Shown in pieces: positions 17,051 through 59,862 of a stretch of 64,000 bases of DNA (positions are counted from its first letter, which is position 1; each line of letters opens with the position of its first letter). The DNA is from a virus (lineage: Duplodnaviria > Caudoviricetes). Both the position numbers and the translations under genes were made by a program. The notes beneath the pieces are model-generated. The model was not told the origin of the DNA, searched no databases, and saw only the letters and a program-made list of their open reading frames with translations. The stretch lies in IMG/VR virus record IMGVR_UViG_3300033074_000984; one strand, given 5' to 3'.

Positions 17051-18603
17051 CAGGGACATTGAAACCATTAAACGGCGTACTGGCTCTAAAGCGTTATAAC
17101 GAGACGTACTCGTTCGTCTCGTGCGAGGACTCCGCCGCCGAGGAGCTGCATGACTGGCTCACGTTTCAGCCGCCGGGCTATCAGCACTCTTACGCGTTCA
17201 AGAAGCGTCGCTGGGACGGCACGGTGCACCTCTTCAACAAGAGGACTCGACTCGTCTACGCGGGCCTCGCCTACAAGGTGCGCGAGTTCTGTGAACTTCG
17301 CGGCTACGAGTACGTCGAGCCAGAGCCAGAGGTTGCTGGCTGGAACGTCGGCGCGATCATAAAAGACCTGGGACTGAAACTTGAGCCGCGCGACTATCAG
17401 TTCGACGCGATCGCGCACCTGATCAACGCAGATCGAGGTGTCGTTCTCCTCCCGACATCTTCGGGTAAGACGCTCGTCGAGTGGGCCATGGCGCGCTGGC
17501 ATCAGAAGAACAAGCGCAGGACCCTCGTCATCGAGCCGAAACTGAACTTGATCGCACAGACCCAGAAGGCGTTCGAGAGGTACGGAAGCTCGAGCCAGGA
17601 CATCCACGTCATCTCGGCTGGCGCTGACAAGAGCACTCGCAAGCCGATCGTCATCTCAACGTGGCAGTCGATATACGAGCTTCCTCCAGAGTGGCTGTCG
17701 CAGTTCGACGTCATAGAGGGAGACGAGGCCCACAGGTTCACCGCAAAGAGCCTCACAGGCATCATGGAGAAGGCGCCTGGCTGTAAGTATCGTTACGGCT
17801 TCACCGGCTCGCTCGACGACACCCAGGTGCACAAGCTGGTTCTCGAGGGCCTGTTCGGGCCGGTATACGTCCCGGTGACGTCTGACGGCGCCGCTGCTAC
17901 GACCAGCGAGCTCATGGAGCGGGGCTACATGTCTCCGCTCGAGATCGTCGTGGTTGTTCTTAGGTACTCGGACGTCGATCGACAAGAGCTCTTGTCGAGA
18001 AAGGCGCGGGTGTCACGCAACACAGCAGCGGCGACTGCAGGCGCAAAGAAGTACGCTGAGGAGATCGACTTCCTTAACGCTCATGAGAGGCGCAACGCGT
18101 TCTTGGCCAGGCTCGCTGAGTCTAGCGCTGCGCAGGGCAACGCTCTTCTGTTGTTCTCTCGAGTGGAGAAGCACGGCGTGCCACTGTTCGACAAGATCGC
18201 CGGTCTAGGCACGCAGACGTACTTCGTCGCTGGGACGGTAGATGCAGACGTCAGAGAAGAGATTCGAGAGATAGTGTCGCTCGAAAAGAACGCTCTCATA
18301 GTAGCGTCTGTCGGAACGTTTCAAGAGGGCGTAGACATACCTAGTATAGAGAGACTGATCTTTTCTGCGCCGTCGAAGGCCAAGATCCAGACACTTCAAG
18401 CCATAGGGCGCGGCTTGAGGCTCAACGAGGGAAAGTCCCGATGCGTGTTGTACGACGTCGCAGACGACCTCTCATGGAACGGCGATGAGAACTATGCGCT
18501 CAAGCACATGGAGAAAAGAGTAAGGCTCTATGCCAGAGAAAAGTTCGACTATCGCGTCGTCACCGTTGAGCTCCCAGCCAGTAATGGTTGTGGTGACGAC
18601 TAG
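17047..18603 (+). CDS. uvsW: UvsW helicase
   Basis: PRDYQ, PTSSGKT, DEAH, GFTGS, TFQEGVDI, LQAIGRGLR. Confidence 0.95.
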   Translation: MTGTLKPLNGVLALKRYNETYSFVSCEDSAAEELHDWLTFQPPGYQHSYAFKKRRWDGTVHLFNKRTRLVYAGLAYKVREFCELRGYEYVEPEPEVAGWNVGAIIKDLGLKLEPRDYQFDAIAHLINADRGVVLLPTSSGKTLVEWAMARWHQKNKRRTLVIEPKLNLIAQTQKAFERYGSSSQDIHVISAGADKSTRKPIVISTWQSIYELPPEWLSQFDVIEGDEAHRFTAKSLTGIMEKAPGCKYRYGFTGSLDDTQVHKLVLEGLFGPVYVPVTSDGAAATTSELMERGYMSPLEIVVVVLRYSDVDRQELLSRKARVSRNTAAATAGAKKYAEEIDFLNAHERRNAFLARLAESSAAQGNALLLFSRVEKHGVPLFDKIAGLGTQTYFVAGTVDADVREEIREIVSLEKNALIVASVGTFQEGVDIPSIERLIFSAPSKAKIQTLQAIGRGLRLNEGKSRCVLYDVADDLSWNGDENYALKHMEKRVRLYAREKFDYRVVTVELPASNGCGDD

Positions 18604-38539: not shown

Positions 38540-38613
38540 GCGGCTTTCCGACCCGGGGTCGGGCGCGGCTTTCAATCCGTAGCGGACGGGTTCGACTCCC
38601 GTAAGCCGCGCCA
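38540..38613 (+). tRNA. Atypical tRNA-like gene (8-nt anticodon loop CTTTCAAT)
   Basis: GCGGCTT/AAGCCGC acceptor + GCCA, canonical T arm, compact D arm. Confidence 0.6.
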
Positions 38614-43669: not shown

Positions 43670-43743
43670 GCCGGTGTAGCTTAGCGTAAAGCCCCCGTCT
43701 TGTAAGCGGAGAGTCGGCAGCTCAACCCTGCCCGCCGGCACCA
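43670..43743 (+). tRNA. tRNA-Thr(TGT), non-canonical T loop
   Basis: GCCGGTG/CGCCGGC ACCA; loop CT-TGT-AA. Confidence 0.75.
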
Positions 43744-45028: not shown

Positions 45029-45565
45029 ATCCACTACCTGATCTACGAGACTCTCTGTCTTGTCAACGGCAAGACGTACGTCGGCAAGCACCAGACGCGA
45101 GACGTTAACGACGGCTACGTCGGGTCCGGCAAACTTCTTAAGAGGGCCGTAGCTCGTTACGGCGCCGACAACTTCGTCACGCGCGTCCTGTACGACTTCG
45201 ACGCCGAGTGGAAGATGAACGTGGCTGAACGCGTCTTGGTCTGTACGGACCCAGAAGTGAGCTACAACCTCTGTCCAGGTGGCAAGGGCGGCTGGCGATA
45301 CGTGAACGACTCTTTAACGCATGTAATGCGCAGTGTAAGAGCAGCAAACTTGCTAAAGGGTGCTAGTGCAGGCGGTAGAGCGCGGTTTTTGAAAATGGGA
45401 ATGCCGCATAAATTCATAGAAGCGGCAAAGCATCAGGGAAACGCCTTCCTAGGAAGGAAACACTCTGAAGAGACTAAAGCGCGAATGCGCGCTAATCACT
45501 CTGCAAAGAGTCATCCGAGAGGCCCTCGCGGTCCTTACAAAAAACTAAAGAGGGCGAATGTCTGA
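45029..45565 (+). CDS. SegB-like GIY-YIG homing endonuclease, probable ATC start
   Basis: GGAGG-5nt-ATC then HYLIYETLCLVNGKTYVGKHQT..DGYVGSG, in frame with the 45215 ORF; NUMOD3 GRKHSEETK. Confidence 0.8.
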   Translation: MHYLIYETLCLVNGKTYVGKHQTRDVNDGYVGSGKLLKRAVARYGADNFVTRVLYDFDAEWKMNVAERVLVCTDPEVSYNLCPGGKGGWRYVNDSLTHVMRSVRAANLLKGASAGGRARFLKMGMPHKFIEAAKHQGNAFLGRKHSEETKARMRANHSAKSHPRGPRGPYKKLKRANV

Positions 45566-45813
45566 GAAGTTCCAAGAGTACAAGCTGCAAGTTCGCGTAT
45601 TGGATCGTGACGAGTTCAAACGAGTCATGGACGCGTTTGATCCGTTTCGAGAAGACATCGACTACGTCGCTCGCATAATTAATGAGCGCACTCTTGAGCC
45701 CTCGATAATCTTCGCGATAGTTGCAAAGTCTAGGACGGGGTTTCGTCCACACTACATGGCGCCGCTTGAGATGATCGAAGACCTCAAGGCTGTAAGTCGC
45801 GACAAGAACCAGA

Positions 45814-45887
45814 GCTGCCTTAGCTCAATGGAAGAGCGTCCGGCTGTGGACCGGGAGACCTGAGATCGATACTCGGAGGCAGTACCA
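45814..45887 (+). tRNA. tRNA-His(GTG), no G-1, A73
   Basis: GCTGCCT/AGGCAGT-A-CCA. Confidence 0.88.
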
Positions 45888-45889
45888 AT

Positions 45890-46187
45890 GCCCGTTAGCT
45901 TAACGAGAGCGCCCGCTAAGCGGGAGGCGGATACTCGACGTGTCCTCGGGCTCCAGCTTCTGAGCTAGCTCAAACAGAGCACTGGGTCGTAGCCCTTAAC
46001 AGGGTCGATCTAGCGATGGGGGTCCGAACCCCCCGCTCAGAGCCATATCGGGGTAGCTTAATCCAGAGCACCGCCCTTTAAGGCGGTTGTGGAGGTGAGA
46101 GTCCTCCCCCTGATACCATCCCGAGGTAGCTTAATGAGAGCCTGTCGTGTGGCGGAGATGAAGGTGAGACCCCCTCCCTCGGGGCCA
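45890..46187 (+). ncRNA. Four tandem tRNA-like RNAs with aberrant anticodon arms (45890-45955, 45959-46045, 46047-46118, 46120-46187)
   Basis: Each has an acceptor stem + NCCA, a TAGCT..GAGC D arm and a T-like arm. Confidence 0.7.
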
Positions 46188-46309
46188 GATTCAAGAGCGG
46201 TTGATGAGACGTGGACGAACGTCCTAACAGGACTCGTCTATTCATGGACCGGCTCAGAGTGGCGCTGGACGGGCAGAACTGTTCCGGTGTCAGACTTAGA
46301 CTAGATTAC

Positions 46310-46386
46310 ACGGGTGTAGCTTAGCGGCCAGAGCGGCGGTCTCCAAAACCGCGTCAACGGGGGTTCGAGTCCCTCCTCCCGTGCCA
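46310..46386 (+). tRNA. tRNA-Trp(CCA)
   Basis: Cloverleaf, CCA end. Confidence 0.9.
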
Positions 46387-46394
46387 ACTTTAAC

Positions 46395-46469
46395 GCCTCA
46401 GTAGCTCAGTGGTAGAGCGGATGCCTGAAGAGCATCGCGCCGGAGGTTCGACTCCTTCTTGAGGCACCA
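46395..46469 (+). tRNA. tRNA-Phe(GAA)
   Basis: Cloverleaf, CCA end. Confidence 0.92.
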
Positions 46470-46473
46470 ACAT

Positions 46474-46545
46474 GGACTGCGAAGCTGCCGGTGTGGCTAC
46501 CCGTCTGTCTAACGGGTGAGAGGGGTTCGACTCCCCTGCAGTTCG
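46474..46545 (+). tRNA. tRNA-Asp(GTC)
   Basis: GGACTGC/GCAGTTC-G; CCA position reads CATAG. Confidence 0.8.
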
Positions 46546-46598
46546 CATAGGCCTCCAGACGATACATAGATATGTGCTGTGTATCTCTGGAGGCTCCC

Positions 46599-46778
46599 AT
46601 CCACTACCTGATCTACGAGACTCGATGTCTCGTCAACGGTAAGACGTACGTCGGCAAGCACCAGACACGAGACGTCAATGACGGCTATGTCGGCTCTGAC
46701 AAGTTACTTCGACGCGCCATTAAGAAACATGGAGCCGGGAACTTTGTCACTCGAAGCAGTAAAACAGAAGATACGTGA
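46599..46778 (+). pseudogene. Truncated copy of the SegB-like GIY-YIG gene
   Basis: Near-identical to the N-terminus at 45029, stops after ~60 aa. Confidence 0.8.
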
Positions 46779-47009: not shown

Positions 47010-47080
47010 GGGTAGAGCTCTGGGAGCGGCCGGCTCTGTAAAAGCACGCCAGCGTGGTTCGATTCCACGGCTACCCACCA
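47010..47080 (+). tRNA. Atypical tRNA-Tyr(GTA)-like
   Basis: 6-bp acceptor, minimal D arm, no variable arm, ACCA. Confidence 0.55.
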
Positions 47081-47416: not shown

Positions 47417-47501
47417 GGGGAGGTATGCGGCTAAGGACGCCGCGCCGTCTGTAAAACGGCTGTCTTTGACTGGCTGAGATCGTTACTCAGACTCCCCACC
47501 A
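47417..47501 (+). tRNA. tRNA-Tyr(GTA)
   Basis: CT-GTA-AA, variable arm, ACCA. Confidence 0.82.
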
Positions 47502-47883: not shown

Positions 47884-47966
47884 GCCCAGGTGGCATATGG
47901 AAAACGGAACACCTGACCGCCTCAGAAGCGGCGCTTTTGCGGGTTCGAATCCCGCCCTGGGTACCA
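47884..47966 (+). tRNA. tRNA-Leu(CAG)
   Basis: CT-CAG-AA, enlarged D region, ACCA. Confidence 0.78.
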
Positions 47967-48310: not shown

Positions 48311-48393
48311 GCGCGACTGGCTTAGGGAAATCGGTACACTCACTGGCCTTAAAAGTCAGGCTCTTCCGGGTTCGAGTCCCGGGTCGCGCACCA
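48311..48393 (+). tRNA. tRNA-Leu(TAA)
   Basis: CT-TAA-AA, enlarged D region, ACCA. Confidence 0.78.
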
Positions 48394-48971: not shown

Positions 48972-49754
48972 ATGCACTGGGTGATACAGAGTAACGTCTT
49001 CAACGAGCCGTTCTTCTTCAAGATGCTCGATCTCCTCGAGAGAATGAACATACCACACGACGTAGTTCGCGCAGTGCCGTTCACGGGCGAGATGATCCCG
49101 GAGCCTGTCATAGATGGTCCGGCCATCGCGATAGGCTCCTACTCTTTCACGAATCGCGCTCGTCAGCTCGGCTGGCGTCCCGGTTCGTGGACCAACGAGA
49201 ACTACGACTATCGAGTGTGGTCTCGTCACTGGGACGAGTTCGTCTTGAACAAGGGCGAGGTGTGCCAGTTCGGCTCTGTTCCAGAGCGCGAGGGACTCTT
49301 TTTTATGAGACCAACGGCTGATGACAAGGCCTTTACCGGACACGTGCTCGACTACTCAGAGTACTCTGCATGGAGGCAGAAGCTCGTCGACCTCGTCGAA
49401 GACACCACGACCGTTGGCTTGTCTCTAGACGCTCCGGTACTTGTCGCTGAGCCGGTAGGCATAGCTGAGGAGTACAGGTTCGTCGTCATAGACGGAGAGC
49501 CGATCACTGGCTCCCTGTACAAGTCGCGCGGCGTGGCCCTTCAGAGAGAGGTTAGGACTGAACGCCAGGACTTGTACGACTACGTAGCGAGGGTGATCTC
49601 AACGTGGCAGCCGGCTAGGGTGTTCTGCTTAGACGTCGCCATCTCCGGCGGTCAGCCGTACGTATTAGAGATGGGAAACTTCAACTCCGCAGGTCTGTAC
49701 CAGTGCGACGTCCATAAGATCGTGGAGTCGATTGAGGGCATGTTAGTCGAGTAA
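48972..49754 (+). CDS. ATP-grasp protein (R2K/DUF4343 type)
   Basis: FFMRP..D.KAFTG, EYRF.VIDG, F.LD.A, LE.GNFNSAGLY. Confidence 0.8.
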   Translation: MHWVIQSNVFNEPFFFKMLDLLERMNIPHDVVRAVPFTGEMIPEPVIDGPAIAIGSYSFTNRARQLGWRPGSWTNENYDYRVWSRHWDEFVLNKGEVCQFGSVPEREGLFFMRPTADDKAFTGHVLDYSEYSAWRQKLVDLVEDTTTVGLSLDAPVLVAEPVGIAEEYRFVVIDGEPITGSLYKSRGVALQREVRTERQDLYDYVARVISTWQPARVFCLDVAISGGQPYVLEMGNFNSAGLYQCDVHKIVESIEGMLVE

Positions 49755-51550: not shown

Positions 51551-51699
51551 GTTCTCTTTACGCCGTTCTCGTGTTTTCGCGAAAACGGGCCCACAAGTAG
51601 TGTAGCTGTTGCTCCGGGGAGCGGGGACCCCTTTAAAGGGTCCCTCCTAGGTTCGACTCCTAGGCAGTGACAAGGACGCGGGAACGGCGTAAGGAGAAC
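51551..51699 (+). ncRNA. Long-stem RNA enclosing a tRNA-like domain with a UUA anticodon-like loop
   Basis: GTTCTCTTTACGCCGTTCTCG/CGGGAACGGCGTAAGGAGAAC closing stem; D, anticodon and T arms inside. Confidence 0.6.
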
Positions 51700-57061: not shown

Positions 57062-57137
57062 CTAGGTGAAGCTCGTGTTAGAAGAGCACCTCCCTCGGAA
57101 GGAGGAGGCCCCGGGGCAGAGCCGGGCACCTAGACCA
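57062..57137 (+). tRNA. tRNA-Pro(CGG), non-canonical T loop
   Basis: CTAGGTG/CACCTAG-A-CCA; CT-CGG-AA. Confidence 0.8.
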
Positions 57138-59773: not shown

Positions 59774-59862
59774 GGAGGGTTAACCGGACAGGTGCGCCGG
59801 CACCGCCTTGAAAGCGGCAGGGAGCCCAGAGCTCTGGGGATCGAGACCTCAGCCCTCCTCCA
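59774..59862 (+). tRNA. tRNA-Ser(TGA)
   Basis: Long variable arm, CCA. Confidence 0.85.

Follow-up and report, generated by a model that had tools for sequence, protein, structure and literature searches.

Do genes that fold into CCA-ended cloverleaves and lack a normal anticodon loop specify useful RNAs, or are they tRNA genes in decay? This question is raised by four such units, here named U1 to U4, which stand back to back in a phage tRNA array. The DNA that we analysed (the window, 64,000 nucleotides) corresponds, read on the reverse strand, to bases 66-64065 of an IMG/VR virus record of 161 kb, and it encodes a T4-type portal, tail sheath and UvsW. Among cultured phages the best match of the portal was that of Stenotrophomonas phage DLP_6 (57% identity), and the best match in IMG/VR, located on an 18-kb contig, was 71% identical; these values indicate that the phage has no close sequenced relative. 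The tRNA array, on the + strand, starts at ~38.5 kb and occupies the rest of the window. ARAGORN identified 22 tRNA genes in it, and these are interspersed with small ORFs, with genes or fragments of genes for GIY-YIG/NUMOD endonucleases, and with one GOLLD RNA. The phage genome also encodes a DUF7873 protein, and within the array lies a gene for an R2K-clade ATP-grasp protein (positions 48972-49754; Pfam R2K_3 and R2K_2).

The tRNA-His gene that precedes the four units has a G1:U72 pair and discriminator A73, and it lacks a G-1 paired with C73, a pattern that we take to be that of a clade of Alphaproteobacteria. The DUF7448 gene in the neighbourhood has a Bradyrhizobium match, and the tRNA-Trp downstream of the units is 81% identical to the tRNA-Trp of Ruegeria phage DSS3_MAL1. 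Together, these sequence features hint at an alphaproteobacterial host.

The features of the locus are listed in Table 1. U1 to U4 adjoin the 3' side of tRNA-His, the successive spacers being 2, 3, 1 and 1 nt long. No terminator-like site was found between tRNA-His and tRNA-Phe, on which grounds we infer that the units would be transcribed together with tRNA-His, tRNA-Trp and tRNA-Phe. A truncated GIY-YIG gene is located near the four units (46572-46778).

Table 1. Positions in the window of the four units and of the tRNA genes and spacer discussed with them
Feature	Position	Strand	Evidence	Remark
tRNA-Thr(UGU), non-canonical D and T loops	43670..43743	+		probable parental type of U1
tRNA-His(GUG), CCA encoded	45814..45887	+	ARAGORN; Rfam 57.7 bits	first gene of the likely co-transcribed block
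U1, 66 nt, ends UCCA	45890..45955	+	MFE cloverleaf; 19/20 stem pairs standard	
U2, 87 nt, ends GCCA	45959..46045	+	MFE cloverleaf; 21/21 stem pairs standard	
U3, 72 nt, ends ACCA	46047..46118	+	Rfam tRNA 47.4 bits; 21/21 pairs standard	
U4, 68 nt, ends GCCA	46120..46187	+	20/21 pairs standard	tandem duplicate of U3
Structured 122-nt spacer, U4 to tRNA-Trp	46188..46309	+	z -5.37; 0/200 shuffles fold as well	
tRNA-Trp(CCA) and tRNA-Phe(GAA)	46310..46469	+	ARAGORN; Rfam 55.4 and 64.2 bits	canonical tRNAs of the block, downstream of the units

According to the initial annotation, the units keep acceptor stems, NCCA ends and D arms, and their anticodon arms end in a 3-nt loop, a 4-nt loop on an extended arm, a 6-nt loop and a 4-nt loop. 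When each unit was folded alone and without constraints, the MFE structure was a four-arm cloverleaf with a free 3' NCCA, which confirmed both the four units and their loop sizes. The acceptor stem is 7 bp long in U2, in U3 (where it includes G4:U69) and in U4; the claim that it is kept needs qualification for U1, whose acceptor has only 5 bp plus a U-U apposition and is one pair short, the seventh being absent. The D arm is indeed present in all four units (in U1 a 4-bp stem with a 5-nt loop), with the correction that the D loops (AACGA, AAACA, AAUCCA and AAUGA) are all short, 5-6 nt, and have no GG, that is, no G18G19. At the anticodon position U1 has a 5-bp stem capped by three nucleotides (CCCGC-UAA-GCGGG), U2 a 32-nt hairpin in which 8 bp, a 2-nt bulge and 5 bp lead up to the loop UAAC, U3 a 6-bp stem with the loop CUUUAA, and U4 a 5-bp stem with four loop nucleotides (CUGUC-GUGU-GGCGG). 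The T loops had been described as non-canonical throughout. Those of U3 (UGAGAGU) and U4 (UGAGACC) are far from consensus, with G-A at positions 55-56, but those of U1 (CUCGACG) and U2 (UCCGAAC) are near-canonical. The T arm of U4 is weak, its stem containing an A-C mismatch. The elbow contacts of G18G19 with U55 and C56 are absent in the units. Odd D and T loops are not peculiar to U1-U4, however, since several decoding tRNAs of this phage have them too, namely Thr(UGU), His, Gly(UCC), Cys and two hidden tRNAs, Tyr and Pro, which are described below.

The predicted folds differ in robustness. The ensemble frequency of the cloverleaf was 0.52 for U1, 0.42 for U2 and 0.60 for U3, and only 0.08 for U4; by the same measure the neighbouring genuine tRNAs scored lower than U1-U3 (tRNA-His 13%, tRNA-Phe 4%). 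Compared with shuffled sequences, U2 gave a z-score of -4.83 (none of 200 shuffles folded as well) and U3 one of -2.96. The z-score of U4 was -0.25, so that its cloverleaf is the MFE structure but not a robust one. We also searched this strand of the 161-kb genome with a strict descriptor, which demanded a 7/7 acceptor stem, a 4/4 D stem, a T stem with at least 4/5 pairs and a 7-nt loop, and a terminal NCCA. It returned 14 matches against a mean of 1.2 in shuffled sequence, and U2, U3 and U4 (three of the four units) were among them; a permissive descriptor was swamped by false positives. Automatic classification of loops from MFE folds was unreliable, RNAfold closing normal anticodon loops too. 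MAFFT alignments of the units were not structural, and pair counts were therefore taken from a manual parse.

U1 to U4, with loops of 3, 4, 6 and 4 nt, all lack the 7-nt loop in which position 33 is U and position 37 a purine, and because opening or closing pairs shifts the size of a loop by two, no register yields such a loop. None of the four can thus read codons in the normal way, and the view of the initial annotation that they are non-decoding was borne out. In possessing a cloverleaf and a 3' NCCA the units nevertheless share what defines a canonical tRNA, save for the acceptor of U1. U1-U4 are tRNA-derived, cloverleaf-shaped and CCA-encoding, and they are unable to present an anticodon.

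ARAGORN called none of the four units. With the Rfam tRNA model RF00005 only U3 scored above threshold, with one loop position deleted, and U1, U2 and U4 gave no match even at E<=10. U3 may be a tRNA-Lys(UUU) with a one-base homopolymer error, but we set this idea aside, as it leaves the other three units unexplained. If the long arm of U2 is taken for the variable arm of a class II tRNA, an anticodon arm of 17 nt can no longer be drawn, and this reading was rejected. Two ORFs overlapping the region (46089-46304 on the + strand and 46078-46245 on the - strand) were rejected as protein-coding, neither having a PHROG match. The YrlA model RF02553 matched no unit; its sole match in the region, at 22.3 bits against a threshold of 69, covers tRNA-Trp and tRNA-Phe. 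G3:U70, the alanine identity pair that acts independently of the anticodon, is present in no unit, and alanine identity was rejected. Neither a FemAB-type transferase nor a CCA-adding enzyme nor a peptidyl-tRNA hydrolase was found in the phage genome. The lack of G3:U70 in the units and of a phage FemAB-type transferase argues against a role as aminoacyl donors, although a host transferase might serve.

The origin of some units can be read from their sequences. U3 and U4 share direct repeats of 20-28 nt (71-85% identity) with a period of 69-73 nt, as well as the derived T-loop core UGAGA, and are tandem duplicates. When U1 was compared with the 30 tRNA-like genes of the window, its best full-length match was tRNA-Thr(UGU), at 0.70 overall and 0.81 over the 5' part. 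The two share the D arm, and in both the T loop conforms to CUC-purine-AC. The anticodon arm reads CCCGU-CUUGUAA-GCGGA in the Thr gene and CCCGC-UAA-GCGGG in U1, so that the arm of U1 equals that of tRNA-Thr minus CUUG, with both weak stem pairs now C:G. U1 therefore looks like a copy of tRNA-Thr(UGU) from which four anticodon-loop bases were removed. The 122-nt spacer between U4 and tRNA-Trp folds into two long hairpins, and the inner one (~46211-46241) is built like the long arm of U2 (8 bp, 2-nt bulge, 5 bp). Its apex, CCUAACAGG, is near-identical to CCUUAACAGG in U2, and the motif CCT(T)AACAGG occurs in the 161-kb genome only twice, in the U2 arm and in this hairpin. Alignment of the whole spacer with U2 was not significant (31 of 500 shuffles reached its score); the hairpin looks like a remnant. 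Taken together, U1-U4 are best described as products of tRNA gene duplication within a dynamic phage tRNA cluster.

Relatives of the units were sought in several collections. Megablast and blastn searches of 50,697 phage records produced no homologue of any unit, the lone blastn match, of U3 to a tRNA-Met, reflecting generic tRNA resemblance. Searches of IMG/VR with an exact 31-mer and with a D-arm/T-loop pattern likewise gave no homologue, and what this pattern matched in JGI metagenomes and GTDB genomes was unrelated or due to chance. Two of these chance matches, in Clostridia MAGs (L143, 4059-4102, and L145, 503-546), are unrelated to the phage units. Their folds are similar and cloverleaf-like but have no CCA; CAAGCGAGGUAA follows in both, and they may represent a cis-regulatory leader. 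The upstream ORF (45558-45863) had no homologue among 5.8 billion proteins, the DUF7448 gene is widespread and synteny was not found for it, and with DUF7873 as bait nothing was found in IMG/VR. Finally, the tRNA arrays of the portal relatives (G001-G003) and of DLP_6 contain no counterpart of the units.

An analogue, rather than a homologue, was present in Ruegeria phages. DSS3_MAL1 carries an unannotated 75-nt cloverleaf ending in ACCA, flanked by tRNA-Val on one side and by a gene called as tRNA-Pyl (anticodon CUA) on the other, and missed by both ARAGORN and Rfam. At its anticodon position there is a 4-bp stem with a GAAA tetraloop. The 75-nt gene is also present in DSS3P8 and vB_RpoS-V10, at 84.5% identity. 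All 20 pairs are standard in both of the distinct sequences, which differ on both sides of four pairs; as a control, alignments slid by 1-3 columns pair at 27-45%. Like U1-U4, this unit is a CCA-ended cloverleaf among tRNA genes, and it has a 4-nt loop in place of the anticodon loop. Unlike them, it is a single copy rather than a tandem, and it has no detectable sequence homology to them; it also has features of its own, a 6-bp D arm and a T loop that is canonical in two of the three phages. These comparisons show that anticodon-less, CCA-ended cloverleaf genes exist in other phage tRNA arrays and that they can be held by structural selection. The conservation with covariation of this analogue raises the prior for U1-U4; it does not prove their case. 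Adjoining tRNA-Arg in DSS3_MAL1 is a further tRNA-like unit that is missing from the annotation (91 nt, CCA-ended; record positions 17377-17467). An extra arm capped by GAAA accompanies the 4-nt loop AACA at its anticodon position, and no counterpart of this unit was present in other phage records.

How do the units compare with non-decoding or unusual tRNA-like RNAs described before? In T4, tRNA-Arg is immediately followed by rnaD (119 nt) and rnaC (139 nt) in head-to-tail arrangement, and the same tRNA cluster includes segB, a GIY-YIG gene. A canonical T arm with an acceptor-like helix makes up the 3' end of rnaC; rnaD ends in an encoded ACCA. The function of RNA C and RNA D (the species 1 and 2 stable RNAs) is unknown (PMC3014915), and in experimental evolution of a T4-like phage an rnaD SNP was common to all lines evolved on E. 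coli ECOR34 (PMC12685909). These RNAs resemble U1-U4 in abutting tRNA genes of a T4-type cluster and in mimicking the tRNA end. They are longer, however, and form no cloverleaf, whereas U1-U4 are tRNA-sized, four-arm cloverleaves, and local alignment scores of the units against rnaC and rnaD were within the shuffle range. A second comparison is with phage tRNAs whose altered anticodon loops escape host anticodon nucleases (PMC10264068); the T5 tRNA-Lys acts against PARIS (PMC11464382). Such tRNAs, which belong to the context of defences that target tRNA, are likewise encoded in tRNA clusters and have anticodon loops off the host pattern, but they keep a 7-nt loop and decode, which U1-U4 cannot. 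Y RNAs of the YrlA type (RF02553), found in bacteria and phages, are non-decoding RNAs that copy the acceptor, D and T arms of tRNA (PMC4201824). This they share with the units, but a stem that binds Ro60 takes the place of their anticodon arm. Finally, the two genes annotated as tRNA-Pseudo in DLP_6 are, like the units, tRNA-derived, non-decoding and placed in an array with small ORFs. Set against tRNA pseudogenes, U1-U4 have stems that are intact and compensated, and their lesions are confined to loops.

Inspection of the array brought to light further tRNA-like genes. Three apparently functional tRNA genes, all NCCA-ended, were missed by both ARAGORN and Rfam: a Tyr gene (47418-47501) with the loop CUGUAAA, a long variable arm and the T loop AUCGUUA; a Pro gene (57062-57137) with the loop CUCGGAA and the T loop GGCAGAG; and a class II Ser gene (59774-59862) with the loop CUUGAAA and the T arm GGGGAUCGAGACCUC. 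This Ser T arm is identical in DLP_6, the present phage and Ruegeria phage DSS3_MAL1. The gene at 48311-48393, called tRNA-Glu(CUC) by ARAGORN at an odd offset, has by eye the arm CUGGC-CUUAAAA-GUCAG and hence the anticodon UAA (Leu). That at 47884-47966 has the loop CUCAGAA (anticodon CAG), and the two, which have a similar, unusually long D region, look like paralogues. A tRNA-like gene at 46474-46546, just upstream of the truncated GIY-YIG gene, has CUGUCUA (Asp) as its anticodon loop, on a stem of 6 bp, and a D arm made up of 6 bp and a 4-nt loop. With the Rfam tRNA-Sec model it reaches 37 bits, and its discriminator is followed by CATAG instead of CCA. ARAGORN also reported tRNA-like genes with odd loops at 38540-38613 (an 8-nt loop) and at 51602-51672 (anticodon UUA). 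A 71-nt CCA-ended unit at 47010-47080 combines a canonical T arm (CGUGG-UUCGAUU-CCACG) with a degenerate 3-bp anticodon stem around CUGUAAA, and is likely a decayed copy of Tyr type, in contrast to U1-U4. In the array of DLP_6 (record positions 104035-113330) many seemingly empty gaps are occupied by CCA-ended tRNAs that the annotation omits. These have normal 7-nt loops and include Ser CGA, Ser GCU, Gln UUG, Gly UCC, Asp GUC, Met and Tyr; there is also one odd unit with a long irregular arm (110090-110183).

Whether the units are decaying or maintained was judged from their pairing. Across U1-U4, 81 of the 83 stem positions form standard pairs in the manual structural parse, although all the loops deviate from the consensus of tRNAs. 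Between U3 and U4, 13 pairs are unchanged, three are changed on one side and still paired, four are changed on both sides and still paired, and one is broken; that is, seven of the eight changed pairs stay paired, four of them through double changes. Between U1 and tRNA-Thr(UGU), four pairs are double-changed with pairing kept. Compared with tRNA, length changes are confined to loops, the exception being the missing seventh acceptor pair of U1. The loop lesions themselves, deletions of ~4, 1 and 3 nt and one gain of 15 nt, are all different. With stems paired, changes compensated and length changes in loops, the pattern is not what neutral decay predicts, under which stems would be broken as often as loops are hit, although these counts make a weak test of compensation, coming as they do from paralogues in one genome in which the loop lesions are undated relative to the compensations. 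The argument of the initial annotation that the acceptor sequences differ yet remain paired, which would speak against random decay, stands in so far as pairing is concerned; the diversity of the acceptors may in part have been inherited from different parental tRNAs.

We propose that U1-U4 are processed, stable, non-decoding tRNA mimics, a reading based on sequence and predicted structure to which we assign a probability of about 0.5. Duplication of tRNA genes inside the cluster would have given rise to the four unit genes. After co-transcription with the flanking tRNAs, RNase P would release each 5' end and the 3' ends would be trimmed back to the encoded CCA; spacers of 1-3 nt resemble those of processed phage tRNA precursors. 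The products would then accumulate as stable tRNA-shaped RNAs, like RNA C and RNA D of T4. Their role is a matter of speculation, and this applies also to the roles suggested in the initial annotation, namely decoys for acceptor-end toxins or for uncharged-tRNA sensors and aminoacyl donors. They might titrate host factors whose binding site on tRNA is the CCA end or the acceptor/T-arm half, for instance defence toxins that cleave or modify tRNA. We favour titration because the units keep the acceptor, T arm and CCA, cannot decode and are without the loop in which anticodon nucleases cut. The absence of this loop would make them poor substrates of such nucleases and would keep them out of the ribosome. 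Mimicry of the tRNA elbow is disfavoured, as the contacts of G18G19 with positions 55 and 56 are gone. Against the mimic reading stand the lack of any homologue of the units in our searches, the heterogeneity of the lesions, the weakened U1 acceptor and U4 T arm, the flux of the region, and the fact that no gene for a tRNA-dependent enzyme was found in the phage. In a bolder version, U1-U4 would be a purpose-built battery of anticodon-less mimics, each carved from a different tRNA through loss or replacement of its anticodon loop and made in bulk to sequester or jam host immune proteins that bind the tRNA body or CCA, or anticodon nucleases that dock on the body, and the Ruegeria gene would be a second, independent example of this principle of counter-defence. 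We mention this version tentatively and think it unlikely.

Several points made above against the mimic reading are what one would expect if the units were tRNA pseudogenes, that is, duplicated tRNA genes, each inactivated by an anticodon-loop indel and still awaiting decay or deletion, any RNA made from them being a by-product. We take this to be the main rival, a serious one but less probable than the mimic reading. The units derive from tRNAs and cannot decode; pseudo-tRNAs do occur in phage arrays, as the two annotated in DLP_6 illustrate; four unlike lesions are how independent inactivating accidents would look, and the searched collections hold no homologue. The region is dynamic, with fragments of homing endonuclease genes and a remnant-like hairpin, one arm each is weakened in U1 and U4, and a further, degenerate Tyr-like unit lies close by. 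Accidents of this kind would not, however, readily leave the stems of the units paired as well as those of working tRNAs and the changed pairs of U3 and U4 compensated, nor would they restrict length changes to loops while the anticodon stems are kept or even strengthened. In addition, NCCA and tight spacing are retained in all four units, and lytic phage genomes shed unused DNA fast. The tetraloop-capped Ruegeria analogue, conserved with covariation, also argues against mere decay.

Two other readings are less probable. The cloverleaves, perhaps with the adjoining spacer, might stay joined and uncut as a multi-domain scaffold of ~300-420 nt, in the manner of this phage's other large RNAs that mimic tRNA. 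The very short distances between units, the strong structure of the adjoining spacer, and the presence of GOLLD and the DUF7873 gene in the same genome would fit such a composite RNA, but each unit has its own acceptor stem and NCCA, the signature of an RNase P substrate, and dimeric tRNA precursors of T4 with equally short spacers are cleaved. We therefore regard a composite RNA as improbable. Least probable of all is the reading of frameshift, doublet or stop codons by at least one of the units, for which U3 with its CUUUAA loop would be the first candidate. That U3 passes the Rfam tRNA threshold and that the phage has other tRNA-like genes with odd loops speak for unusual decoding. Loops of 3 and 4 nt, as in U1, U2 and U4, cannot present an anticodon, however, while U3 has a 6-nt loop on a 6-bp stem with no 7-nt register and is devoid of D-loop/T-loop contacts, and no gene requiring such decoding was identified.

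Phage tRNA genes are now seen partly as weapons against host defences that destroy tRNA. The tRNA-like stable RNAs of T4 have been known since the 1970s and are still without an assigned function, and U1-U4 are a variant within these known, unexplained RNAs of phages. Since standard annotation overlooks such units, and likewise a number of working tRNAs in this phage and its relatives, the anticodon-less class is probably under-counted. A tRNA body without an anticodon loop separates the body from decoding, which makes these RNAs natural probes of what the body is used for, and the question can be taken directly to the bench with the analogue, which is carried by cultured Ruegeria phages that grow on Ruegeria pomeroyi DSS-3.
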